Source: an uncultured Gemmatimonadaceae bacterium
GTDB lineage: Bacteria; Gemmatimonadota; Gemmatimonadetes; Gemmatimonadales; Gemmatimonadaceae
Length of the DNA stretch: 64,000 nucleotides
Direction: 5' to 3'
NCBI GenBank assembly: GCA_963716745.1
Contig: OY970320.1
Coordinates: 2,528,001-2,592,000 of the forward strand
The translations under genes and the position numbers were made by a program. The notes beneath the pieces were generated by a model that saw nothing but the letters and a program-made list of their open reading frames with translations, was not told the origin of the DNA and ran no database searches. The stretch's first letter is position 1, and each line of letters begins with the position of its first letter. Positions 5,579 through 44,635 of the stretch are shown piece by piece.

Positions 5579-6240
5579 GCCTGCTCCATCGCGAGCCGGC
5601 GCAGCGTAGAGATCGCGTCCTTGGGATCGGCTGCGGCGCACACCGCCTGCCCGGCGACGAAGGTGTCGGCACCGGCGCGATGCACGCGCGCGATCGTGTC
5701 GCGGTTGATCCCACCATCCACCTCGAGCGCCGCGCGGCTGTGCGCGCCGTCGAGCAGCGCCCGCGCGCGACGCACCTTGTCCACGCTGGATTCGATGAAC
5801 GTCTGGCCGCCGAATCCCGGGTTCACGCTCATGATGAGCAGCAGGTCCACCATGGAGATCACGTCGGCCACCATGTCGAGCGGCGTACTGGGATTGAGCG
5901 CGACGCCCGCCATGCAACCGAGCTCTCGAATGCGGCCGAGGTGGCGATGCAAATGCGGTGCGACCTCGGCGTGGATCGTGATGTGGTTCGCGCCGGCCGC
6001 GGCGAAGCTGTCGAAGTAACGCTCGGGTTCCACCACCATGAGATGGACATCGAGTGGGAGCTTCGTGAGCCGCCGCAGGGTCTCGATCACTTTCGCGCCG
6101 AAGGTGAGATTCGGCACGAAGCGGCCGTCCATGACATCCACGTGCAGCCAGTCGGCGCCGCCGGCCTCGAGACGCGCCACTTCCCGGTCGAGCTGCGCGA
6201 AGTCCGCGCTCAGCATGGATGGAGCGATGCGTACGGTCAC
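5575..6240 (-). CDS. rpe: Ribulose-phosphate 3-epimerase
   Basis: IAPSMLSADF, HVDVMDGRFVPNLTFG, MSVNPGFGGQ. Confidence 0.97.
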   Translation of the reverse strand: MTVRIAPSMLSADFAQLDREVARLEAGGADWLHVDVMDGRFVPNLTFGAKVIETLRRLTKLPLDVHLMVVEPERYFDSFAAAGANHITIHAEVAPHLHRHLGRIRELGCMAGVALNPSTPLDMVADVISMVDLLLIMSVNPGFGGQTFIESSVDKVRRARALLDGAHSRAALEVDGGINRDTIARVHRAGADTFVAGQAVCAAADPKDAISTLRRLAMEQA

Positions 6241-6969
6241 GGATGATTGGCCACGATGAGGGTGACGGCAGTGCCCGAGTTCACGGCGCGCGTCGGCGCC
6301 GGGTCCTGCCCGATCACGATGCCGTTCGGCGCGTCGGCGAGCGTGTCGTGCGCCGGCGCGACGAGGAAGCCGAGTTGTTCCAGGAGTGCGCGCGCGGCGG
6401 CGTATTGTTGGCCCGTCACATCGGGCACCGTCACGAGCGACGGTCCCGCGCTCACCGTGATCGTGATCGCGCTCGCCGCCGGCACGCGCACGCCCGACGC
6501 GGGATAGACTGCTGAGCACCGTACCGCGCGGCGACGGGCTGTCCATCGCGATCACGTCGCCGATGTCCAGTCCGCTGTTCGTGAGCGTGGCCTCCGCCTG
6601 CTGCTGCGTGAGCCCGGTGATCGGCGGCACTTCCACCGTGCGCTGGCCGCGCGAGAGGTCGAGCACCACGCGCGCGCCGCGCGAGTGCACGCTCTGCGGC
6701 GCGGGCGACTGGCTCAGCACGCTCCCCGCGGGCACCGTGCTCTCATAGCGCTGCTCGCCGCGCTGCGCGACGAAGCCGGAGTCGGTGAGGATCTGTTTCG
6801 CCTGCTCGAACGGCAGGCCGGTGACGTTCGGCACCGCCAGGTCGGTCTTGTTCCCGCTGTTCGGGAAGATGAACAGGCCGACGATGGCGTACGCGAGCAC
6901 GAAGCCGCCGCCGCTCACGGCGAAGTACGGCCAAATGCGGCGCCCGATGGTCCGCAGGTTCTCGTTCAT
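6237..6969 (-). CDS. Membrane-anchored protein with three PASTA domains (apparent frameshift near 6505)
   Basis: TM followed by VPNVTG, VPPITG and VPDVTG repeats; no kinase domain. Confidence 0.85.
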
Positions 6970-8321
6970 GCGGCGCTCCGGCGCAGGCGCGCCGCGAACG
7001 CGCCGTCCACGCCGTGGCGCTGCGGGAGCACGCGCAGGCGGCCGGCGTCGAGCACTTCCGCCGGCACGGCGCCCGCCGGCGGCGGCTCGAGCGTGAACGC
7101 GCCGCGCGCATCGGCGAGGAAGCTCTCGATCTGCGCGTCGTTCTCCTCGGGCTCGATGGAGCAGGTGGAGTACACCAGCAGTCCGCCGGGCCGAACGACG
7201 TTCGCCGCGGCCCGCAGCAGCGCACGCTGCAGCGCGCTCATCACCGCGAGATCGCTCGGCTTGAGGCGCCACCGCGCATCGGGATGCCGGCGGAAGGTGC
7301 CGGTGCCGCTGCACGGCACATCGAGCAGCACCGCGTCCACCTCGGCCACCGCCGGGAAACGCGCGTCGGCCACCACGGGAAACACGTTCTTCGCGCCCAC
7401 GCGCGCGATGTTCTGCGCGAGCCGCGGCGCGCGCGCCGGACTCCGGTCGCACGCGATGACCACGCGCGCCTCGCGCGCGAGCTCGAGCGCCTTGCCCCCG
7501 GGCGCCGCGCACAGGTCGGCCACGCGCGAGCCCGGCGCGATGGCCGCGTACTCGGTCACGAGCGTCGCGCCGGGATCCTGCACGAAGAACTGCCCCTGCG
7601 CGTACGCGCCGAGCCCGGTGAGCGACACGCCGCTCTCGATCTCGAGACTCCCGTGCACGAGCGGAACGTGCCGCGTCGTGACGCTCGCCGCGTCGAGGAT
7701 CGATTCGAGCTGCTCGCGCGCCACGCCGTATGGCCGCAGCACGGTGGGCGGCTCGATGTTGTTCTGCGCCAGCAGCGCCGCGGTGTCGGTCGCGCCCCAG
7801 CGCGCCACCCAGCGCGCCACGAGCCAGCGCGGATGCGAGTGCGCGAGCGCGAGCGCCTCCACCGGATCCGCGGGCGCCGGCAAAGCGAGTTCGCCGCGCT
7901 CGCGATCGATACGGCGCAGCACCGCGTTCGCGAGACGGCTCGCGCCGATGCCGTGCCGCTCCTTCACGAGCTCCACCGTCTGCGCGATCGCCGCGTACGC
8001 CGGCACGGAGCCCATGTGCAGCAGCTGGTCGGCGCCGAGTCGGAGGAGGTCCACCACGTCGGCGTCGAGCCGCCCGAGCCCGCCGGTCACGCGCGGCGCG
8101 ATATGCGCGTCGAGTTCCGCGCGCCGGCGCAGCATGCCGAACACCAACTCCTGCAGCCAGCGGCGGTCGCGCGCGTCGAGCGGCGCGGTTCGCGACTCGA
8201 ACGCCGGGTCCAGCATCTCGCCGCGCCGCATGTCCGCGCACAGTTCCGCCGCCGCGCGCCGCGCGTCGGTGACCTGCGAGAGCGGACGGTCAGCCGGAGC
8301 CGGTGCGGGACGCGTCGTCAT
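6966..8321 (-). CDS. rsmB: 16S rRNA m5C967 methyltransferase
   Basis: NusB-like N-terminus; DLCAAPGGK, DVPCSGTG, YSTCS. Confidence 0.95.
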   Translation of the reverse strand: MTTRPAPAPADRPLSQVTDARRAAAELCADMRRGEMLDPAFESRTAPLDARDRRWLQELVFGMLRRRAELDAHIAPRVTGGLGRLDADVVDLLRLGADQLLHMGSVPAYAAIAQTVELVKERHGIGASRLANAVLRRIDRERGELALPAPADPVEALALAHSHPRWLVARWVARWGATDTAALLAQNNIEPPTVLRPYGVAREQLESILDAASVTTRHVPLVHGSLEIESGVSLTGLGAYAQGQFFVQDPGATLVTEYAAIAPGSRVADLCAAPGGKALELAREARVVIACDRSPARAPRLAQNIARVGAKNVFPVVADARFPAVAEVDAVLLDVPCSGTGTFRRHPDARWRLKPSDLAVMSALQRALLRAAANVVRPGGLLVYSTCSIEPEENDAQIESFLADARGAFTLEPPPAGAVPAEVLDAGRLRVLPQRHGVDGAFAARLRRSAA

Positions 8322-23495: not shown

Positions 23496-25058
23496 ATGGC
23501 CCAACCCCTCAAGTCGGTCCTCTGGGTGGACGACGAGGCCGATCTCCTCGAGTCGCACCGGATCTATCTTCGCGAGAAGGGATTCGAGGTAGATGCCGCC
23601 ACGAACGCCGATGACGCCGTCGAGATGCTTCGGCGGCGCCCCTACGGCATCGTGCTCCTCGACGAGCAGATGCCCGGCAAGCGCGGCCTCGAAGCGTACC
23701 GCGAGATCCGCGAGCTCGATCCGCTCCTGCCCATCGTCATGGTCACGAAGAGCGAGGAGGACGCGGTGCTCCGCGAGGCGATCGGCGTTGACGTGCGCGA
23801 TTACCTCGTGAAACCGATCAATCCGCGCCAGGTGCTCACGGCGATCACGAAGGTGCTCGAGGGCCCGCGCATTCGCGCGCAGGCGCTTTCGCGCGCCTTC
23901 GTCGAGCGGTTCCGCGAGATCGAGCTCGAGCCGAAGCTCACGCTCGATTGGCGCGGCTGGATCTCGCGCTACACGGAGCTCGCCGAGTGGGACATCGCGC
24001 TCGCGGATGCGAAGGAGCAGAGTCTCTACGACTCGCTGCAGGGACTCTATCCCGCGCTCCGAAAGGAATTCGCGAACTGGATGCGCCACGAATACCCGCG
24101 CTGGCTGCGCGAGCTCGAAGGCGACCGGCCGCCGCTCTCGGTGGACGTGGTCTCGGAGTTCCTGCTGCCGATCCTCGAGCGCTCGCGTGCGGCGGTGTTC
24201 ATCGTGGTCGACTGTCTTCGTCTCGACCAGTGGATGACGCTCGCGCCCATCCTCGCGCCCTGGTTCGACGTCGAGACCACGCATCATTTCGCGGTGCTCC
24301 CCACGGCCACGCCGTATTCGCGCAACGCGCTCTTCTCGGGGCTCTTTCCCGGCGAGATCGCCGCGCGTTTCCCCGATTGGTGGGGCGAACGCGAGGATGA
24401 ATCGCTCAACGCGCACGAGAAGCAATTGCTCGAGGCGCATCTCGCCGAGCTCAAGATCGCCGTGCCGGTGCGCTACGATAAGATCTCGAGCGCCAACGAC
24501 ACCGCCGACCTCGAGCGCCGCGTCTCGGGCGCCATCGCGCACGAGGGCGTGAGCGCGTTCGTCTTCAACTTCGTGGATCTGCTCACGCATGGCCGCTCGG
24601 AGTCCGCGATCCTGCAGGAGGTCGCGAAGGACGAGATCGCGCTCCGCGCGCTCACGAAACAATGGTTCGAGCGCTCGGTGCTCTTCGCGCTCCTGAAAGA
24701 GGCCGCGCGCCGCCGCATCCCCGTGCTCATCACCAGCGATCACGGCTCCATCCACTGCCACACGCCCGCGACGGTGTTCGCCAAGCGCGACGCCACCGCG
24801 AACCTCCGCTACAAGTTCGGAGAGGACCTGCGCGCCGAACGCACGGAGCACGCACTGCTCTTCGGGAATTCCGATGACCTGCGCCTTCCGCGGCGTGGAC
24901 TCGGCGACAACACGCTGCTCGCCGTGGGCGACACGTTCTTCGTGTATCCCACCAAGCTGCGCGAGTACCAGTCGCGCTATCGCGGATCGTTCCTGCATGG
25001 CGGCGTGACGCCGGAGGAATGCATCCTGCCGGTCGCCTTGCTCACGCCCAAGAGTTGA
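23496..25058 (+). CDS. PorX-like response regulator with PglZ/alkaline-phosphatase-superfamily domain
   Basis: Receiver (WVDDE, LLDEQMPG, MVTKSEE); VVDCLRLDQW, LPTATPYSRNALFSG, ITSDHG, FLHGG. Confidence 0.9.
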   Translation: MAQPLKSVLWVDDEADLLESHRIYLREKGFEVDAATNADDAVEMLRRRPYGIVLLDEQMPGKRGLEAYREIRELDPLLPIVMVTKSEEDAVLREAIGVDVRDYLVKPINPRQVLTAITKVLEGPRIRAQALSRAFVERFREIELEPKLTLDWRGWISRYTELAEWDIALADAKEQSLYDSLQGLYPALRKEFANWMRHEYPRWLRELEGDRPPLSVDVVSEFLLPILERSRAAVFIVVDCLRLDQWMTLAPILAPWFDVETTHHFAVLPTATPYSRNALFSGLFPGEIAARFPDWWGEREDESLNAHEKQLLEAHLAELKIAVPVRYDKISSANDTADLERRVSGAIAHEGVSAFVFNFVDLLTHGRSESAILQEVAKDEIALRALTKQWFERSVLFALLKEAARRRIPVLITSDHGSIHCHTPATVFAKRDATANLRYKFGEDLRAERTEHALLFGNSDDLRLPRRGLGDNTLLAVGDTFFVYPTKLREYQSRYRGSFLHGGVTPEECILPVALLTPKS

Positions 25059-26887
25059 TGCGCGCGACGAAGTTCTATCCGCGGTTGATCAAGTTCCTGC
25101 GGCCGCACGGTTGGCGCATGGCGGGCAACATCATCTTCAACTTGATCGGCGCCGCACTCGATGGGTACTCGTTCGCGCTGCTCATCCCGTTCCTGAACGC
25201 GCTGTTCAACCAGCCGCCACTCGTGGTCGGACGCGGCTGGGTGAACAACTTCCTGCAGTTCACGATCGGCGCGCTGCTCGATGCGGCGCATCCTATGACG
25301 TCGCTGCGCAACGTGATCGTGGTCCTGCTCGCCGTCGTGGCGGTCAAGAACATCTTCATCTGGCTCGCCAACGTGCTCGGCGCCGAGCTGCAGGAGTACG
25401 TCACGCGCGACATGCGCGACGCGGTCTACCACCACCTCGTCGCGCTCCCGATCCGCTATTTCACCAGCACCAAGGTCGGTCAGATCCTGTCGCGCGTCCT
25501 CAGCGACACCGAGCAGACCAAGTCGCTCGTCACCGAGGTCGTGACGAGGGCGGTGAACTCGGCCTCGCTCGTCATCGTGTACATCGCGTATCTCCTCGGC
25601 ATCTCGTGGAGACTCACGCTCATCTCGCTCATCATCGCGCCGCTCCTCACGCTCGTGCTGCAGCCGCTGCTCCGCCGGCTGCGCCACGGCTATCGCGTGT
25701 TGCGCAACGATCACGGCGAGATGATGAGCGTGTTGCAGGAGAGCGTCAGCGGCATCCGGCTGGTGAAGTCGTACGGCGCCGAGGAGTACGAAGATGCGCG
25801 CTTCACCGGCGCCAGCTTCAAGTACTCGAGCGGTCTGGTGCGCATGGCGCGCATCGCCAACATCGCGCAGCCGCTCACGGAAGTCCTCGGCATGGTCATC
25901 GTCGCGGTGCTGCTCTGGATCGGCGCGCGGGAAGTGCTCATCGACAATTCGCTCCAGGCGTCGCAGTTCATGGTGTTCATCGCCTTCGTGATGCGCCTGT
26001 TGCAGCCGATGAAACAGCTCTCGCAGATCCCGGCCGTCGCGCAGAATTCCTTCGCGAGCGCCGAGCGCATCTTCCAGGTGCTCGATCATCCCACCGAGCA
26101 GGCGCTCGACAAGGGCACGCGCATGGTGGATGGCTTCCGCCGGTCGATCGTGTTCGACACGGTCTCGTTCGCGTACGACGACGAACCGGTGCTCAGCGAC
26201 ATCCAGTTCGCCGCGAAGAAGGGCGATGTGATCGCCTTGGTGGGCGCGAGTGGGGCGGGGAAGAGCACGCTCGTCGATCTCATCCCGCGGTTCTACGAGC
26301 CGACGAGCGGCCGCATTCTGCTCGATGACGTGGACGTACGCGAGATCGCACTCGCCTCCCTGCGGAATCTCACCGGCATCGTGAGCCAGGAGACCGTGAT
26401 CTTCAACGAGAGCGTGCGCGCGAACATCGCCTACGGCCGGAACGACAAATACAGCGACGCGCAGATCGAAGCGGCGGCGCGCGCGGCGAACGCGCACGCC
26501 TTCATCGCCGAGTTGCCCGCGGGCTACGCGACGGTGCTCGGCGAGCGCGGCGCGCGGCTCTCCGGCGGGCAGCGCCAGCGCATCGCGATCGCGCGCGCGC
26601 TGCTGCTCGATCCGCCCATCCTCATCCTCGATGAGGCCACGAGCGCGCTCGACACCGAGAGCGAGCGCCTCGTCCAGGAAGCGATCGACCGGCTGCTCGA
26701 AGGCCGCACGGTGTTCGTCATCGCGCACCGCCTGTCCACGATCCAGCACGCCACCGAGATCCTCGTGCTCGACCGCGGCCGCGTCGTCGAACGCGGCACG
26801 CACGAGGAGCTGCTCGCGCGACGCGGCGCCTACCACCGGCTGCACGCGATGCAGTTCGGCGACCGGGAGCGGGCCGTCCCTGTCTGA
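25058..26887 (+). CDS. msbA: MsbA-like ABC exporter (permease + ATPase)
   Basis: Six-TM N-terminus, [25 protein letters not shown]; adjacent to lpxL. Confidence 0.85.
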
Positions 26888-27815
26888 CGAGCGCCGCGCC
26901 ACGGTCGCGCACCGCCTCGAGTACGGCGCCCTGCGCGCGATGCTCGCGGTGTTCGGCGCGTTCCCCTGGCGGGTCTCCACCGCCGCCGCGGGGTTCATCG
27001 GCCGGCTCGGCTATTCGCCCTTCCGCATCCGCCGCCGCGTGGTGGAGCGGCAGATCGCCGCCGCGTTCCCCGGACTCTCCGCCCGCGATGTCTCGGCGAT
27101 CGCGCGCGCCTCGTATGACAACCTCGGCCGCGTCGCCGTCGAGGCGGCGCATCTCTCGCGACTCGGGCCGGAGCAGGTCATCGCGCTCTTCGACGAGATC
27201 CACGGCTGGGACGCGGTAGAGCGCGCCCGCGCGCAGGGCAAAGGCATCGTGTTCCTCACCGGCCACCTCGGCAATTGGGAACTCGCGGGCGCGATCGTCG
27301 CCGCGCGCGGCATCGCCTTCGACGCGATCGCGCGCCGCATGGGGAATCCCGTGTTCGATGCGTATCTCACGCGCACGCGGCTGCGCCTCGGGATGAACAT
27401 CGTCCCGGATTCCGACGCCGTGCGCCGGGTGCCGCGCACGCTGCGCGCCGGCGGCGCCGTCGCGTTCCTCGCCGATCAGTCGGGGCTCAACCTCGCGTCC
27501 ACCTTCGTGCCCTTCTTCGGGCGCCCGGCGAAAACGCCGCGCGGCCCCGCCGTATTCGCGATCCGGTTCGAGGCTCCCGTGATCTTCGGTGTCGCGACGC
27601 ATCTTCCCGGCGGCAAGTTCCGCATGATGTTCGAGGAGGTCCCCGTAACGCGCACCGGCGACCTCGACCGCGACACCGACGCGCTGCTCACGCGTTACTC
27701 CGAGGCGCTCGAACGCCAAGTGCGCCTCGCACCCGGGCAGTATTTCTGGCAGCACAAGCGGTGGAAGCGCCAGCCCGACACCACGCCGCCGGAGCTGCTC
27801 GACCCCACGCTGTGA
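26880..27815 (+). CDS. lpxL: Lipid A biosynthesis acyltransferase (LpxL/HtrB family); start approximate
   Basis: [32 protein letters not shown]. Confidence 0.88.
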
Positions 27816-28075
27816 CCGAGCCGCGCGCGCCGCGATCGCAGCATCGCGAGCGGTTCGTCTCTGCGTCCGAGCTCGGCGAGTACGCCTACTGTCGCCGCGC
27901 GTGGTGGCTGCGTGCCGTGCGCGGCGCGCACTCGGACCTGCAAGGCACTCGCTTCGATGAAGGCCGTGCGGCGCATGAGCGGCACGCGTACGGGATCCTC
28001 GCCGCGCGCGCGCTCGCTGTCGTCGCGGCACTGCTCGTGGCGGCGGCCGCGTGCTGGATCTGGCTCGCGCGATGA
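27812..28075 (+). CDS. Cas4-like N-terminal fragment with C-terminal TM helix
   Basis: [17 protein letters not shown]...GRAAH, then [23 protein letters not shown] overlap with lpxL stop. Confidence 0.75.
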
Positions 28076-28578
28076 TCGTCGCTGCGATCGTTCTCGCCGC
28101 CGCCATCATCCTGGCGATCGCGAGCTTCGCGCTCTACCGCCGCGCCGGGATCAGCGGTCGCATCGTCGCGAGCGATGGCCCCGTTTCGCGCCCATCGCGG
28201 GTGCTGCGCTCCGCGCGCCACGGGATCTCTGGCAAGCCCGACTACCTCGTGGTCGAGCACGGCCGCATCGCACCCGTGGAGGTGAAGCCCACGCGCGCGA
28301 GCGACCGGCCCTGGCTGCGCGACGTCGTGCAGCTTGCCGCGTATTGTCTGCTCGTCGAGGAGACGCACGAGCGCTTCGCCGGCTATGGCTATCTCCGCTA
28401 CGCCAATCGTACCTTTCGCATCGACTTCACCGACTCCATGAGGGACGAAGTGCTCAGCACCGCGAATGCTCTGCGCGATGACCTCGCCGCCACCGATGTC
28501 GATGCCAACCACGACGATCCACGCCGCTGCGCACGCTGTGCGTTGCGCACTCCCTGCGGCCGCCCGGTGAGCGCATGA
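28072..28578 (+). CDS. Cas4-like PD-(D/E)xK nuclease core with N-terminal TM helix
   Basis: TM, then GKPDYL, VEVK, QLAAY, C-terminal CARCALRTPC. Confidence 0.85.
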   Translation: MIVAAIVLAAAIILAIASFALYRRAGISGRIVASDGPVSRPSRVLRSARHGISGKPDYLVVEHGRIAPVEVKPTRASDRPWLRDVVQLAAYCLLVEETHERFAGYGYLRYANRTFRIDFTDSMRDEVLSTANALRDDLAATDVDANHDDPRRCARCALRTPCGRPVSA

Positions 28579-29723
28579 CCTACGACGTGACCGCGCTCCG
28601 CGCGCGCGAATATCCGTGGGCCGAGCGCGGCGACGCCGTCTACCTGAACAACGCCTCCACCGGCGCGCTCCCGGCGCGCACGGTGCGCGCGACCGCCGAT
28701 TTCCATGCGCTGCGCGCCGAGCCGTGGCGTCTCACCGATGACGCGCAGTTCGCCATCCTGCGCCGCACCCGCGAGCTCTGCGCCACGCTGATCGGCGCCG
28801 GCGCCGATGAGATCGCGTGCATGGCGAATACGACGTACGGCGTGAACGTCGCCGCGCGGTGTCTGCCGCTCAAGTCCGGCGACGTGGTGCTCACCTTCGA
28901 TCGCGAGTTCCCCGCGAACATCTATCCGTGGATGGCGCTCGCGAAGCGCGGCGTCACCCTCGAGCGCATCCCCACGCGCGACAAGCTCCCCGACGAGGAC
29001 GCGCTCATCGCCGCGCTCGATGGGAAGAACGTGAGAGCGGTCGCGATCGGTTGGGTGAACTTCGCCACGGGATACAAGGCCGATCTCGCGCGCATCGGCC
29101 GCGCCTGCCGCGAGCGCGGGATCTACTTCGTCGTGGACGCGATGCAGGGACTCGGCGCCGCCACGCTCGACGCGCGCGCATGCCAGATCGACATCCTCGC
29201 GTGCGGCGGACAGAAATGGCTGCTCTCGCCGTGGGGCTCGGGCTTCGTCTATGTGCGACGGGAACTCGTCCAGCAGCTTGAGCCCGAGGCCGTCGGCTGG
29301 ATGGCGATGCGCGCGTCCGAAGATTTCACGCGGCTCGTGGACTATGAATTCGCCTACCACGACGACGCGCGCCGCTTCGAGGTGATCACCGTGCCGTTCC
29401 AGGATTTCGCCGGATTCAATGCGAGTCTCGGGATGATGGTCGAGCTCGGTCTCAAGAACATCGAGGCGCACGACGCGGCGCTCGTCGGCCAGGCGGTGGA
29501 ATGGGCGCAGTCGCGGAGGGATATGAAGCTCGTGACGCCGGTGGATCCCGCACGCCGCGCCGGGATCGTCTCGATCGCGCCGCCTGACCCCGCGGCCACC
29601 TCGGAGCGCCTCAAGCAGGCGAAGATCATCCACAGCCTGCGCGAAGGCGCGATACGCCTGTCGCCGCATTGCTACAATACTGCGTCCGAGATTGCGCGAG
29701 CCCTCGAAGTTCTCGGCGGGTAA
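28575..29723 (+). CDS. Class V PLP aminotransferase / cysteine desulfurase-like
   Basis: VYLNNASTG, VDAMQGLG, GGQKWLLSPWG, IRLSPHCYN. Confidence 0.9.
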   Translation: MTYDVTALRAREYPWAERGDAVYLNNASTGALPARTVRATADFHALRAEPWRLTDDAQFAILRRTRELCATLIGAGADEIACMANTTYGVNVAARCLPLKSGDVVLTFDREFPANIYPWMALAKRGVTLERIPTRDKLPDEDALIAALDGKNVRAVAIGWVNFATGYKADLARIGRACRERGIYFVVDAMQGLGAATLDARACQIDILACGGQKWLLSPWGSGFVYVRRELVQQLEPEAVGWMAMRASEDFTRLVDYEFAYHDDARRFEVITVPFQDFAGFNASLGMMVELGLKNIEAHDAALVGQAVEWAQSRRDMKLVTPVDPARRAGIVSIAPPDPAATSERLKQAKIIHSLREGAIRLSPHCYNTASEIARALEVLGG

Positions 29724-29804
29724 TAACAGCGCGTCTGGTCGTTGACGTGTAGCAACTGCGAACAGCGGCCGTTGCCACACGTCAACGACCAGACGCGCCG
29801 TTAT
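29723..29804. repeat. 34-bp inverted repeat between convergent genes
   Basis: ATAACAGCGCGTCTGGTCGTTGACGTGTAGCAAC / GTTGCCACACGTCAACGACCAGACGCGCCGTTAT, 2 mismatches. Confidence 0.9.
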
Positions 29805-30061
29805 AGCTTCATCCTCAACCACCGCCGCCCGACGTACACTCCCGCGCCAAGCAACGCCGCCTGTCCGAAGAATTGCACCAACCCGAACGGCGTCGGCCCG
29901 TACGGCCCGCCGCCCCTCTCCTCGATCGCACGCTCGCGCGACGGCCAGCCCGCGATCTTGATCGTGACGAGCCACACGAGCGCGCATGCCGCGATGATCA
30001 TCGCGCTGCGTGCCAACCCCTCGGGCCACGACGGCGCGAGCCTCACCCCGCCCTTACTCAT
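29801..30061 (-). CDS. Small two-TM membrane protein
   Basis: Two hydrophobic segments; coupled to upstream DUF4405 gene; GGAGG RBS. Confidence 0.55.
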   Translation of the reverse strand: MSKGGVRLAPSWPEGLARSAMIIAACALVWLVTIKIAGWPSRERAIEERGGGPYGPTPFGLVQFFGQAALLGAGVYVGRRWLRMKL

Positions 30062-30529
30062 CGCTCGCCTCCATCTCCTCCGCGGTGAACGCGCGACGCC
30101 GGAGCGCCGCGAGCACCCACCCCCAGTTCATCGCGAATGCAGCCCGACCGCCACGAATAGCACGTTCGACGTCGAGTCATGCAGCTCGAACCAGTCCCCG
30201 TCATAGATCGTGGGCATGCCCGCCCATGGAAGCACGACGCGCGACACCATGATCCCCGAGACGATCACCAGCACCATCGCGAGGAAGAGTCCGACATTGA
30301 TCGCGTAGTTGATGCGCGTGCGCAGGCTGCCGTTCGCGAACAGGCGCTTCGCCTTCGAGATGATCCAGTGCCACGAGAGCAGCATGTGCAGCAACAGCGG
30401 CACGGCGATCGCGATGCCGATGATCTCGTGTGCCGCGACGCCCGTGATCCGCGGCGACTGGATGAGCAGGAAGAGCAGCAGGAGCAGGACGTCGAGCCAG
30501 AGCGCGAAGGCGGTACGGGACATGGGCAT
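30054..30529 (-). CDS. DUF4405 / cytochrome b-like membrane protein (apparent frameshift near 30135; start approximate)
   Basis: AHEIIG...LHMLLSWHWI...IVSGIMVS...LHDSTSN...GLH, continuing AMNWGW in adjacent frame. Confidence 0.75.
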
Positions 30530-36537: not shown

Positions 36538-37140
36538 GTGATCGTCGGTTGTCTTGCGCTGAATGCTTCGTTCGAACCACTGACCATGGTCCCCATGCGT
36601 CGGGCGCTCCGGCTTGTGCTCGATGGCAAGGCCGAGATCGTGGAAGCGGACACCGGCAAGGTCGTGCGCTCGGAGCGCCTCACGCTCCCGCGCCCCGCGG
36701 TGATCCGGCTCGTGAAGTTCATCCACGTGCCGCGCCGCTTCCGCCGTCAGGTAACGAACACCTTCCTCTTCGCGCGTGACCGCTATCGCTGCCAGTACTG
36801 CGGACGCGGCACCATGGACCTGCGCCCGCGCGAGTCGCTCACGCGCGACCACCTCGTGCCGCTCTCGCGTGGTGGCACGAACGAGTGGACCAACGTCGTG
36901 ACGGCCTGCTCGCCCTGCAACACGCGCAAGGGGAACCGCATGGCGGAGGAGATCGGCATGCATCCGCTCGTGCCGCCGGTCGAGCCGCACTTCGTGCACC
37001 TGAGCTGGGCGGTGCGCCGCCTCACGCCGGCACAGTCGAAGTACATCAAACTCTTCTACGGCCCCGAGACGCTCCACCAGGTGGAAGAGCTGGAGCATCG
37101 CCCGCATCACACGCGGGGCGAGAAGATCCTTCGCGCCTGA
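36538..37140 (+). CDS. HNH endonuclease (McrA-like)
   Basis: AGGAGG RBS; CLALNASFEPL, RDRYRCQYCG, TRDHLVPLSRGG, NVVTACSPCNTRKGN. Confidence 0.92.
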   Translation: MIVGCLALNASFEPLTMVPMRRALRLVLDGKAEIVEADTGKVVRSERLTLPRPAVIRLVKFIHVPRRFRRQVTNTFLFARDRYRCQYCGRGTMDLRPRESLTRDHLVPLSRGGTNEWTNVVTACSPCNTRKGNRMAEEIGMHPLVPPVEPHFVHLSWAVRRLTPAQSKYIKLFYGPETLHQVEELEHRPHHTRGEKILRA

Positions 37141-42898: not shown

Positions 42899-44635
42899 AT
42901 GACACCACGATCCAAGCGGCCACTCGGCGCCGCCGCGCACCGTCCGGCGGCCATCCGCCAGTCGGTCGCCCCAATGCACCGCGGACCCCAGGCCAACATC
43001 CTCTCCGCACCGCTCCAGCAGCCACCCTCGGCGTTCCACAGCGACTCCAGCGCCGCCCTCCTCATCGACTTCGACAACGTCACGATGGGGATCCGTTCCG
43101 ACTTGGGACACGAACTCCGCAACCTCCTCTCGAGCGACATCATCAAGGGGAAGGTCGCGGTGCAGCGTGCCTACGCCGACTGGCGCCGCTATCCGCAGTA
43201 CATCGTGCCGCTCGCCGAGAGCTCGATCGACATGATCATGGCGCCCGCGTACGGCAGCTCCAAGAAGAACGCCACCGACATCCGCCTCGCGGTCGACGCG
43301 ATCGAGCTGGTGTTCACACGCCCCGAGATCGACACCTTCATCCTGCTCTCCGGCGACTCCGATTTCGCGAGCCTCGTCACGAAGCTCAAGGAGTACAGCA
43401 AGTACGTGATCGGCGTGGGCATTCGCGAGAGCTCGAGCGATCTGCTCGTGATGAATTGCAACGAGTACTACAGCTACAACGCGCTCGCCGGTCTCGTGAA
43501 GTCGGGCGATGAGGAGACCACGAAGCGCGATCCGTGGGAGCTCGTGCTCGAAGCGGTGCAGCGCATGAAGCGCAACGGCGACGTCATGCGCTCCGACCGC
43601 CTCAAGCAGGTCATGCAGGAGATCGACAACAGCTTCGACGAGGGCAACCTCGGCATGGCCAAGTTCTCCCGCTTCTGTCAGGAAGCCGCGGCGAAGGGTC
43701 TGCTCAAGATCTCGCGCCTCGAGAACGGCCAGATGGAGATCGACGTGCCCGATGGCACGCCATCGCTCCCGCAGTCGCCATCGGTGCTGCCGAGCGCGGA
43801 GCGCCGGGTGGCCACCGCCGCCGGCACGCCGGAGAATCGCCGCCGCGGCCGCCGCGGCGGACGAGGCCGCGGACGCGACCGCGAAGAGAACGGCGCACCG
43901 CGCGCCGAAATGTCGGAGACCGCCCCGGAACTCGTCCCCGACGCCGCGCCAGAGTTCGATCTGGAACCGCGTGAGGTCGCGATCGAGGCGCGAGTCCCGA
44001 GTGCCGAGTCCCGCGCTGTCGATGCCGAGATGACCGGCATGCGTCTCAGCCGCGACGAAGCGTTCACGCTCATCCGCCGCGCCGTCGATTCGCTCTCGAG
44101 CGGACCCGACGACTCCGTTTCCGCCAGCCGCGTGCGCGCGAAAGCGCGCGAGCTGCTGGGCCGCGACAGCGAGACGCTCAGCGAGCGCCACTTCCACCGC
44201 ATCCTGCGCGACATGCACGACGCGGAGCAGATCGATCTTCGCAAGCGCGGCGATGATTACGAAGTGTCGCCGTCGCCCGACGCGCCGCCCATCGCCGAGC
44301 AGTTGGCGGCGTCCGAGGCTGTTGCCGTCGCGGCGGCCGACGCCAGTCAGGCGGGACGCAGCGCGTCAAACGCGGCTTCGCTGCGCCGCGGCATTCGCGG
44401 CCGCGGGCGCGGGCGTGGTGGCCCGGGCGAATTGCCTCCCGGTCTTCTCAGCGTGGGTATCGTCGACCACGGCACTCCAGCGCTCGTGGATGCGCCGGCG
44501 AGCGATGATGCCGACGAGTCCGACGACGACGCGCCGGCGCCCGCCGCCATCGCAGGCGAGAAAGCGCCCGTGAAACGCCGTCGCGGCATTCGCGGCGGCC
44601 GCGCGCGGAAGAAGAAGGAACCCGGCGCCGAGTAG
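42899..44635 (+). CDS. NYN domain ribonuclease with LOTUS/OST-HTH domains (LabA/DUF88 family)
   Basis: LLIDFDNV, RAYADW, KNATDIRLAVD, LSGDSDF; FDEGNLGMAKFSRF LOTUS-like; RGG-rich disordered linkers. Confidence 0.9.
   Translation: MTPRSKRPLGAAAHRPAAIRQSVAPMHRGPQANILSAPLQQPPSAFHSDSSAALLIDFDNVTMGIRSDLGHELRNLLSSDIIKGKVAVQRAYADWRRYPQYIVPLAESSIDMIMAPAYGSSKKNATDIRLAVDAIELVFTRPEIDTFILLSGDSDFASLVTKLKEYSKYVIGVGIRESSSDLLVMNCNEYYSYNALAGLVKSGDEETTKRDPWELVLEAVQRMKRNGDVMRSDRLKQVMQEIDNSFDEGNLGMAKFSRFCQEAAAKGLLKISRLENGQMEIDVPDGTPSLPQSPSVLPSAERRVATAAGTPENRRRGRRGGRGRGRDREENGAPRAEMSETAPELVPDAAPEFDLEPREVAIEARVPSAESRAVDAEMTGMRLSRDEAFTLIRRAVDSLSSGPDDSVSASRVRAKARELLGRDSETLSERHFHRILRDMHDAEQIDLRKRGDDYEVSPSPDAPPIAEQLAASEAVAVAAADASQAGRSASNAASLRRGIRGRGRGRGGPGELPPGLLSVGIVDHGTPALVDAPASDDADESDDDAPAPAAIAGEKAPVKRRRGIRGGRARKKKEPGAE

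Follow-up and report, generated by a model that had tools for sequence, protein, structure and literature searches.

Two short genes of an uncultured Gemmatimonadaceae soil bacterium encode complementary parts of one Cas4-family protein, and each part carries its own predicted membrane helix. The genes, here called A and B, lie in a stretch of 64,000 nucleotides of contig OY970320.1 (assembly GCA_963716745.1), which is the whole of the DNA analysed and is referred to below as the window. We conclude that this two-subunit, membrane-anchored solo form of the Cas4 family is real and conserved, is widespread in Chloroflexota, and has been acquired by a few Gemmatimonadaceae. It is likely that A and B are the two subunits of a single nuclease of the iron-staple, PD-(D/E)xK type, and that this nuclease works without CRISPR. 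The two-piece membrane-bound layout is apparently undescribed as far as literature searches reach, a full-text search having found no paper on split or membrane-bound Cas4. The initial annotation of the window, made from the sequence and its open reading frames (ORFs), had proposed such a split nuclease inside a lipid A export operon; the ORF positions and motifs that it gave were compared with the ORF translations and alignments and are correct in every detail.

Two complementary parts of a Cas4-family protein

In ORF A, the N-terminal helix of Cas4, which bears the first Fe-S cysteine, is followed by the G..H motif and then by a membrane helix at the C-terminus. Its N-terminal cysteine motif spans residues 17-32 and is followed by G51 and H55; only two residues (AR) come after the hydrophobic stretch. 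ORF B begins with a membrane helix, which precedes the complete PD-(D/E)xK core and three cysteines near the C-terminus. The stop codon of A and the start codon of B share the sequence ATGA. The stop of the acyltransferase gene upstream overlaps the start of A as GTGA, and the stop of B overlaps the ATG of an aminotransferase gene at 28575, again as ATGA; all four consecutive genes are linked by stop/start overlaps. The features of the pair, all on the plus strand, are as follows.

27812 to 28075 (+): ORF A, small subunit, GTG start, 87 amino acids
27890 to 27892 (+): codon of Cys27 of A, invariant in the A alignments and aligned with the N-terminal cluster cysteine of Cas4 (8d3l_I)
27974 to 27976 (+): codon of His55 of A, invariant and aligned with the histidine of the Cas4 G..H motif
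27983 to 28072 (+): membrane helix of A, residues 58-87, predicted from hydropathy; the hydrophobic tail is conserved in the A alignments
28072 to 28578 (+): ORF B, large subunit, ATG start, 168 amino acids
28072 to 28146 (+): membrane helix of B, residues 1-25, predicted from hydropathy and followed by YRRAG
28174 to 28176 (+): codon of Asp35 of B, probably nuclease motif I, unchanged across 91 diverse sequences and paired with Asp65 of 7mi4_A in the alignment
28231 to 28287 (+): catalytic motifs GKPD (residues 54-57) and EVK (70-72) of B, with D57, E70 and K72 invariant, aligned to Cas4 structures
28330 to 28344 (+): QLAAY motif (87-91) of B, from the alignment of B relatives
28528 to 28557 (+): C153-x2-C156-x5-C162 of B, invariant and aligned to the C-terminal cysteines of 8d3l_I, 7mi4_A and 4r5q_A

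Searches with hidden Markov models placed the two ORFs on complementary parts of one and the same Cas4 model. In TIGR00372, A matches positions 3-45 (expect value, E, 2.8e-4) and B matches positions 60-178 (E 8.7e-15); in Pfam PF01930 the corresponding positions are 4-41 and 53-158. PADLOC returned matches to Cas4 models only, apart from a weak match to DruK. Because the models agree in this respect, the observation from which the initial annotation started is correct. The scores of the separate chains are modest: B passes the PF01930 cut-off of 22.7 bits (29.5) and A does not (13.5), and both fall below the equivalog cut-off of TIGR00372, which is 65 bits (B, 55.0; A, 20.8). The fused relatives P0241, P0264 and P0338, described below, pass that cut-off with 74.4, 98.7 and 92.5 bits, respectively. 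Profile alignment against structures in the PDB gave the same arrangement, with A on residues 3-49 of the Cas4 chain 8d3l_I, including the cysteine and the G..H motif, and B on residues 102-202 of 8d3l_I and 65-196 of 7mi4_A.

The residues expected of a nuclease of this type are conserved. D35, D57, E70 and K72 do not vary among 91 diverse B sequences, and Q87 and Y91 hardly do; the RecB-type nuclease motifs (acidic motif I, GxxD, ExK and QxxxY) are all present in B and align to Cas4 structures. G51 and H55 of A are likewise invariant and align to the G and H of 8d3l_I. The pattern of four cysteines, one N-terminal and three C-terminal, appears from the alignments to be present as well, spread over two chains. 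Cys92 of B is not invariant in the 91 sequences, which leaves B with three invariant cysteines only and A with one; the fourth ligand of a cluster must therefore come from A. By alignment, A contributes Cys27 and His55, and B contributes Asp35, Asp57, Glu70, Lys72, QxxxY and the three other cysteines.

Canonical Cas4 (PF01930/TIGR00372; structures 8D3L, 7MI4 and 4R5Q; SSO0001, 4IC1) resembles A-B in its profile fold family, in the D, ExK and QxxxY motifs, in the one-plus-three cysteine pattern and in the G..H histidine. It is, however, one polypeptide, whereas A-B is two, each with a membrane helix, in a genome in which neither cas1 nor a CRISPR array was found (cas2 was not searched for). The genome is a single contig of 3.29 Mb, 89.8% complete by marker genes, and the absence of cas1 and of an array is therefore not absolute. 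No match to cas1 (PF01867) was obtained in it, although the same search gave matches in seven control genomes, and a crude scan for exact 20-mers showed no array. The sole array candidate, at G000:C1:2171867-2172200 outside the window, was rejected as a tandem repeat of 110 bp in three copies without unique spacers; the unit is intergenic and contains internal inverted repeats. A-B is the only Cas4-like locus of the genome. These results agree with the CRISPR-free status that the initial annotation had assigned to the pair. Judged by its motifs, A-B belongs to the Cas4 family and is not a CRISPR-associated Cas4.

A Cas4-family gene outside any cas locus is what has been called Solo-Cas4, and A-B is such a gene pair. 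Hudaiberdiev et al. 2017 (PMC5704561) reported a monophyletic solo-Cas4 in many Chloroflexi, which, from the main text of that paper, is probably the clade of A-B; the words 'transmembrane' and 'split' do not occur in that main text. The Solo-Cas4 of Methanosarcina mazei was, according to PMC12501428, purified as a soluble high oligomer, in contrast to the membrane-anchored, two-chain form predicted here, and the word 'membrane' does not occur in that paper.

Distribution, co-occurrence and fused relatives

Relatives of the pair are numerous. In public data we found 442 B-like proteins, the best 120 of which are 166-200 amino acids long, and 117 A-like proteins of 58-111 amino acids. B is named Cas4, Dna2/Cas4 domain protein or PD-(D/E)XK nuclease in the databases, 'CRISPR-associated exonuclease Cas4' being among these names, and A is mostly a 'hypothetical protein'. 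The guess in the initial annotation that such pairs stand in databases mislabelled as Cas4 thus held for B. Both labels mislead genome annotation and CRISPR surveys. A B profile run against 1.84 billion representative sequences gave 1773 matches at E 1e-3 and 660 at E 1e-10; of the 115 among the best 150 representatives that are 155-200 amino acids long, 110 have a hydrophobic helix at the start.

When one genome per species was scanned, 582 of 599 pattern matches proved to be relatives, and the loci of the best 80 were surveyed. Ten are from Gemmatimonadota and 68 from Chloroflexota (Anaerolineae, Chloroflexaceae, Roseiflexaceae, Oscillochloridaceae, Herpetosiphonaceae, Caldilineaceae and Thermoflexus). 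Three loci were cut at a contig end, leaving 77 that could be tested. In 70 of the 77, B is preceded on the same strand by an A-like ORF, which is separate from B in 69 of these 70. The synteny survey that the initial annotation had proposed thus found separate A and B genes in both phyla. The junctions of the 69 pairs fall into four types; the single lengths are approximate, as start codons were picked heuristically.

Overlap: 34 of 69 pairs (20 of them by 4 nucleotides)
Gap of 1-30 nucleotides: 20 of 69 pairs
Gap of 31-200 nucleotides: 6 of 69 pairs
Gap of 621-789 nucleotides with another gene between: 9 of 69 pairs

In five of the nine wide-gap loci the intervening gene encodes a secreted or membrane protein with an HGCIRI-type motif, which we take to be that of an L,D-transpeptidase (YkuD)-like protein (L062:3265-3924, L077:3246-3992, L078:1178-1969, L088:3171-3911 and L090:3126-3917). 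Two further variants were seen. A divergent Chloroflexota subgroup (L103, L104 and L105, of genomes G302, G410 and G374) has an A of about 130 amino acids, in which the soluble part that precedes the one membrane helix is longer and helical (FTASEVA.FEYCPLAWWYE ... QEQHREHAE), and a B of 188 amino acids. Genome G043 (L051/L097, L058, L093) has two B and two A genes, one B and one A forming an adjacent pair and the others standing apart.

The occurrence of A follows that of B. We scored a B match as membrane-type when its profile start was at or before position 25 and used a threshold of E 1e-5 for A. In an even sample of 201 Chloroflexota genomes (denominators include one unpublished genome, G265), membrane-type B was found in 57 and A in 48, all 48 within the 57; no A was detected in the other 144, which lack membrane-type B. 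In 201 Gemmatimonadota genomes, A was present in exactly the three that have membrane-type B, and in none of the ten that carry only canonical Cas4 or Cas4-Cas1 fusions. Over the 402 sampled genomes, A occurred only alongside membrane-type B (51 genomes) and in 0 of 342 without it, a pattern that has no exception on the A side. Five genomes in which B lacks an adjacent A were searched, and all five have an A gene elsewhere, with no B beside it. The initial annotation had held that a failure of A and B homologs to co-occur would refute a two-part model; in the counts they do co-occur. The pair marks a large membrane-bound two-gene clade, with members in 57 of the 201 sampled Chloroflexota genomes and in a few Gemmatimonadaceae.

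The search of representative sequences also returned single-chain relatives, in which two membrane helices join an N-terminus like A to a core like B. Fused forms with two helices are 266-301 amino acids long (P0241, P0264, P0287, P0320, P0341, P0358, P0361 and P0371); others have four helices (324-357 amino acids) or, in Thermoplasmata, eight (559 and 596 amino acids). The named members are archaeal, namely WP_052353351.1 of Methermicoccus shengliensis (266 amino acids, two helices) and a Thermoplasmata protein, and both are labelled Cas4. Of the 279 columns in the alignment of fused forms, profile-profile comparison assigned 2-81 to A (99.4%, E 7.5e-22) and 102-274 to B (100%, E 5.3e-62). 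A and B together therefore tile the fused protein end to end, the point at which they are separated being the outer turn that links the two helices. The archaeal single-chain membrane relatives are like A-B in domain and in the point of membrane insertion and differ in being one chain; a literature search found no paper on them. By the position of its helices, between the G..H helix and motif I, A-B would belong with these membrane-embedded Cas4 relatives, its sidedness being taken from the positive-inside rule. A separate search with P0002 as the query for homologs longer than 294 amino acids gave none at E 1e-8 among 1795 candidates, which is weak evidence, as fused forms of 266-596 amino acids were found otherwise.

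In a FastTree tree of 137 core domains, the fused two-helix forms are scattered among the split ones, and well-supported branches force at least three changes; the multi-helix fused forms are one clade (support 97). The scatter indicates that fission or fusion took place more than once, which is what one would expect of two parts of one machine. The Gemmatimonadota B proteins are a single clade (support 100, stem length 0.77), which, with the archaeal fused forms as the root, falls inside Chloroflexota (supports 89). A Chloroflexota-like donor probably passed the pair to the Gemmatimonadaceae on a single occasion, with lpxL and the aminotransferase gene on either side of the insertion site.

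Proposed assembly, possible cellular role and alternative readings

One could envision the assembly of the enzyme as follows. A would be a tail-anchored protein with a cytoplasmic N-terminus, inserted tail-first with only two residues outside. B would be a reverse signal-anchor protein, with its N-terminus outside and its C-terminus in the cytoplasm. The sequence YRRAG after the helix of B fits the positive-inside rule, so that the catalytic domain is predicted to face the cytoplasm. The two helices would stand in for the transmembrane hairpin that the archaeal single chains have between the G..H helix and motif I. A [4Fe-4S] iron staple would bridge A and B, the catalytic metal site would be a composite of the two, and neither would form until A and B come to lie next to each other in the membrane. 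His55 lies about three residues before the helix of A, and Asp35 ten residues after that of B; the active site might thus be held within a few residues of the inner leaflet. Through the ATGA overlap, translation would be coupled and A and B made in roughly equimolar amounts. The membrane anchoring of both halves that the initial annotation had described is borne out by the hydropathy helices at residues 58-87 of A and 1-25 of B.

In the iron-staple nucleases AddB, Dna2 and Exo5, a cluster held by one N-terminal and three C-terminal cysteines pins the nuclease fold. There the [4Fe-4S] staple lies within one chain, and in A-B it would bridge two. Clusters shared between two polypeptides occur in the nitrogenase Fe protein and in Fx of photosystem I, and the defence systems Zorya and Kiwa handle DNA at the membrane; none of these has a sequence relation to A-B, and they serve as analogies only. 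The iron-staple role of the four cysteines is described in PMC12501428. For the metal site, PMC13621843 reports that the catalytic metal of SSO0001 has His62 as a ligand, along with Asp99, residue 113 and the Lys115 main chain, and His55 of A corresponds to this His62 in the alignment. If the staple and the metal site do span two chains, A-B would be a split nuclease of natural origin that has to assemble in the membrane to be active, and it would then be relevant to Fe-S protein biogenesis, to the insertion of tail-anchored proteins in bacteria and to the design of conditionally active nucleases.

Several points weigh against this interpretation. The membrane helices were called by Kyte-Doolittle hydropathy and nothing else (19-residue window, at least 1.6), and the contact between A and B, the convergence of the four cysteines and the position of His55 are drawn from alignment. 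A alone matches Cas4 weakly (E 1.5 against the PDB, in addition to the Pfam score of 13.5 bits against 22.7). In M. mazei Solo-Cas4, cysteine mutants lost the cluster and stayed active, according to Rentz et al. 2025 (PMC12501428); the cluster is therefore not necessarily needed for catalysis, and the staple may serve assembly and not chemistry. At E 1e-5, A was not detected in nine of the 57 Chloroflexota genomes that have membrane-type B. These may be cases of divergent A forms that were missed, or of incomplete assemblies, and it is conceivable that B acts alone in them. Moreover, the sampled genomes are related within each phylum, and the co-occurrence counts therefore make the cases look more independent than they are. 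The nesting of the Gemmatimonadota clade is moderately supported and depends on the chosen root. Finally, the cellular role, to which we now turn, is read from gene neighbourhoods.

We tentatively favour housekeeping processing of DNA ends or DNA damage at the inner membrane face over a mobile defence function, with a confidence that falls somewhat short of even. The Anaerolineae neighbourhood, the single copy and strong purifying selection are the reasons for this preference. In Anaerolineae, the typical order is ssb, DUF3467, a TRAX/translin-like gene, A, B and NAD kinase (11 loci), with a RecN-like gene. In Chloroflexaceae it is frr-uppS-cdsA-rseP-A-B (18-25 loci). These Chloroflexota contexts are conserved within classes and are not defence islands. 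The pair also points to a putative, unstudied DNA transaction at the inner membrane face.

A bolder hypothesis, which as a whole we consider rather unlikely, is that A-B is an obligate two-subunit nuclease with a safety catch, active only at the inner membrane surface and serving as a housekeeping gatekeeper for DNA ends. With the metal-binding histidine and the first Fe-S ligand on one chain and the rest of the active site on the other, and with an anchor on each chain, there would never be a working enzyme in the bulk cytoplasm. Its targets might be the ends of incoming DNA of phages or plasmids or from transformation, or those of chromosomes caught at the septum in these bacteria, which are often filamentous. 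The fused and split versions would then make up one ancient family of archaea and bacteria, held by about a quarter of the sampled Chloroflexota species.

Alternatively, as the initial annotation had suggested, A-B might be an innate defence nuclease that is stationed where DNA enters and degrades the ends of phage, plasmid or transforming DNA. This is doubtful, although it is the strongest of the alternatives. The predicted closeness of the active site to the membrane is consistent with it, as are the action of the Cas4 family on DNA (in the account of PMC12501428) and the patchy distribution in Gemmatimonadota (3 of 201 genomes), with signs of horizontal transfer. However, the locus lies outside defence islands and has housekeeping neighbours in all three context types, its genes are single-copy and under strong purifying selection, and PADLOC gave nothing beyond the Cas4 models and the weak DruK match. 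A search of viral contigs with the pattern QLAAYCLL, the only one used, gave nine matches, none of them a relative, and no competence gene was found within about 15 kb in the window or among ten neighbour-cluster representatives scanned.

Another possibility is that B is a self-sufficient membrane nuclease and that A is a regulator, chaperone or inhibitor and not a structural half. The D, ExK and QxxxY motifs are all in B, and both the nine genomes without a detected A and the active M. mazei cysteine mutants described in PMC12501428 could be read in this way. Nevertheless, A aligns with the very part of Cas4 that B lacks, including the invariant cysteine and the G..H histidine, fused relatives hold the A part in the same chain, and A was never found without B. 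We therefore regard a self-sufficient B as quite improbable, and two halves of one enzyme as the better reading.

Still less probable is the hypothesis that the pair serves the envelope pathway that surrounds it, for instance with a substrate other than DNA or as a regulator of lipid A export. The genes concerned are the following.

25019 to 26887 (+): MsbA-like ABC transporter (Pfam ABC_membrane and ABC_tran)
26904 to 27815 (+): LpxL-like lipid A biosynthesis acyltransferase (Lip_A_acyltrans, PF03279, E 1.5e-44)
28575 to 29723 (+): class V pyridoxal phosphate (PLP) enzyme/aminotransferase (Pfam Aminotran_5)

Stop/start overlaps run from lpxL to the aminotransferase gene, lpxL is directly upstream of the pair at all seven related loci (L001-L007), and a scan of 24800-30300 for consensus promoters and terminators gave no site of either kind, all of which would suit such a role; so would the position of the pair after uppS-cdsA-rseP in Chloroflexaceae. 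On the other hand, in three of four same-family genomes that lack A-B, lpxL and the aminotransferase gene are still neighbours (the gap being about 90 nucleotides in G020, about 870 in G007 and about 950 in G074). The pair is present in only three of 201 Gemmatimonadota genomes, the Anaerolineae context is one of ssb, a TRAX-like nuclease, NAD kinase and recN-like genes, and the nuclease residues are all invariant. The simplest reading is that A-B is an insertion between lpxL and the aminotransferase gene that was acquired once. The lipid A setting is then incidental, as the pair landed there and has other contexts in Chloroflexota, and the functional tie to a lipid A operon that the initial annotation had implied is not upheld.

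The split itself could in principle be an artefact, either a single gene that an error of sequencing or assembly has interrupted or a pseudogene of recent origin, the true product being one chain with a transmembrane hairpin. Single-chain relatives with such a hairpin exist, and in genome G005 of the same genus (loci L004 and L014; about 1240-2005 of L004) A and B are in a single open frame. In G005, however, an indel within the helix of A joins the frames, and a second break near the C-terminus of B removes the cysteine triad; this looks like a damaged, decaying copy or an assembly error and not like the norm of the family. The initial annotation had singled out 28065-28080 as the place where a base might be missing. 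Assembled contigs of two public soil runs span the A/B junction with 0 gaps (X1, record 3, 27990-28271; X2, record 9, 27992-28102, from a related strain with 10 substitutions), and no insertion or deletion is listed in them within 27600-28800; run X1 is possibly the source sample and in that case is not independent. Against close relatives, the ratio of nonsynonymous to synonymous substitution rates (dN/dS) is 0.115 and 0.139 for A and 0.087 for B, and both genes are under purifying selection. The two-gene layout is repeated in the genus, in two more genera of the family and in a 39%-identical paralog. Together with the separate ORFs at 69 of 77 loci in two phyla, with varied junctions and some genes unlinked, these results refute a broken gene in practice and establish the split as genuine and conserved. 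Programmed frameshifting to one chain was also considered and rejected. The junctions, which range from overlaps to unlinked genes, are too varied for any conserved frameshift site to explain the pair, and no slippery heptamer was seen at 28050-28080.

The last alternative, a CRISPR adaptation Cas4 that acts in trans with cas genes elsewhere, has the database name of B in its favour and can be set aside almost entirely, given a single-contig genome with no cas1 match (seven controls being positive) and no array found.

Genomic surroundings

The window is high in G+C, and related loci in public data come from records titled Gemmatimonadaceae. The 35 kb around the pair consist of housekeeping genes, among them tgt, ruvB, ruvC, yebC, a response regulator with a PglZ domain, the MsbA-like and LpxL-like genes, tyrS and the gene for PBP1A. 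The response regulator (23496-25058, plus strand) is a receiver domain fused to PglZ, which is alkaline-phosphatase-like, and the end of its gene overlaps the start of the MsbA-like gene; we presume that it resembles PorX-type regulators. A stand-alone HNH endonuclease (36538-37140, plus strand) and a protein of 578 amino acids with an NYN domain (42899-44635, plus strand) are encoded 8-15 kb downstream, and no link of either gene to A-B was seen.

The class V PLP enzyme downstream is nearest to cysteine desulfurases of the SufS/CsdA type, with a SufS score of 113.8 bits against a cut-off of 475, and it is far below every curated desulfurase cut-off. It also matches the PADLOC models of DndA and SspA (E about 1e-22), probably through general fold similarity, and by eye it seems to be without a catalytic cysteine loop. 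The idea that an adjacent cysteine desulfurase feeds the cluster was considered and set aside, since the enzyme scores so far below the desulfurase cut-offs and is not linked to A-B in Chloroflexota.

The TRAX/translin-like gene is directly upstream of A in 30 Chloroflexota loci (e.g., L062:2363-3025, plus strand), its product matching AfTRAX (PDB 3zc1, E 1.2e-18), and it often overlaps the start of A; its NCBIfam name is haloacid dehalogenase superfamily protein, PRK14562. No such gene was found in the source genome with the L062 protein as the query. Further upstream of the TRAX-like gene, ssb and DUF3467 occur in about ten loci each. On the other side, B is followed by NAD kinase and then by a RecN-like SMC_N protein in six of seven loci scanned (e.g., L081:4767-5627 and 6162-7820). 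The genes ppnK and recN are a common pair, and the link of NAD kinase and the RecN-like gene to A-B may be inherited gene order.

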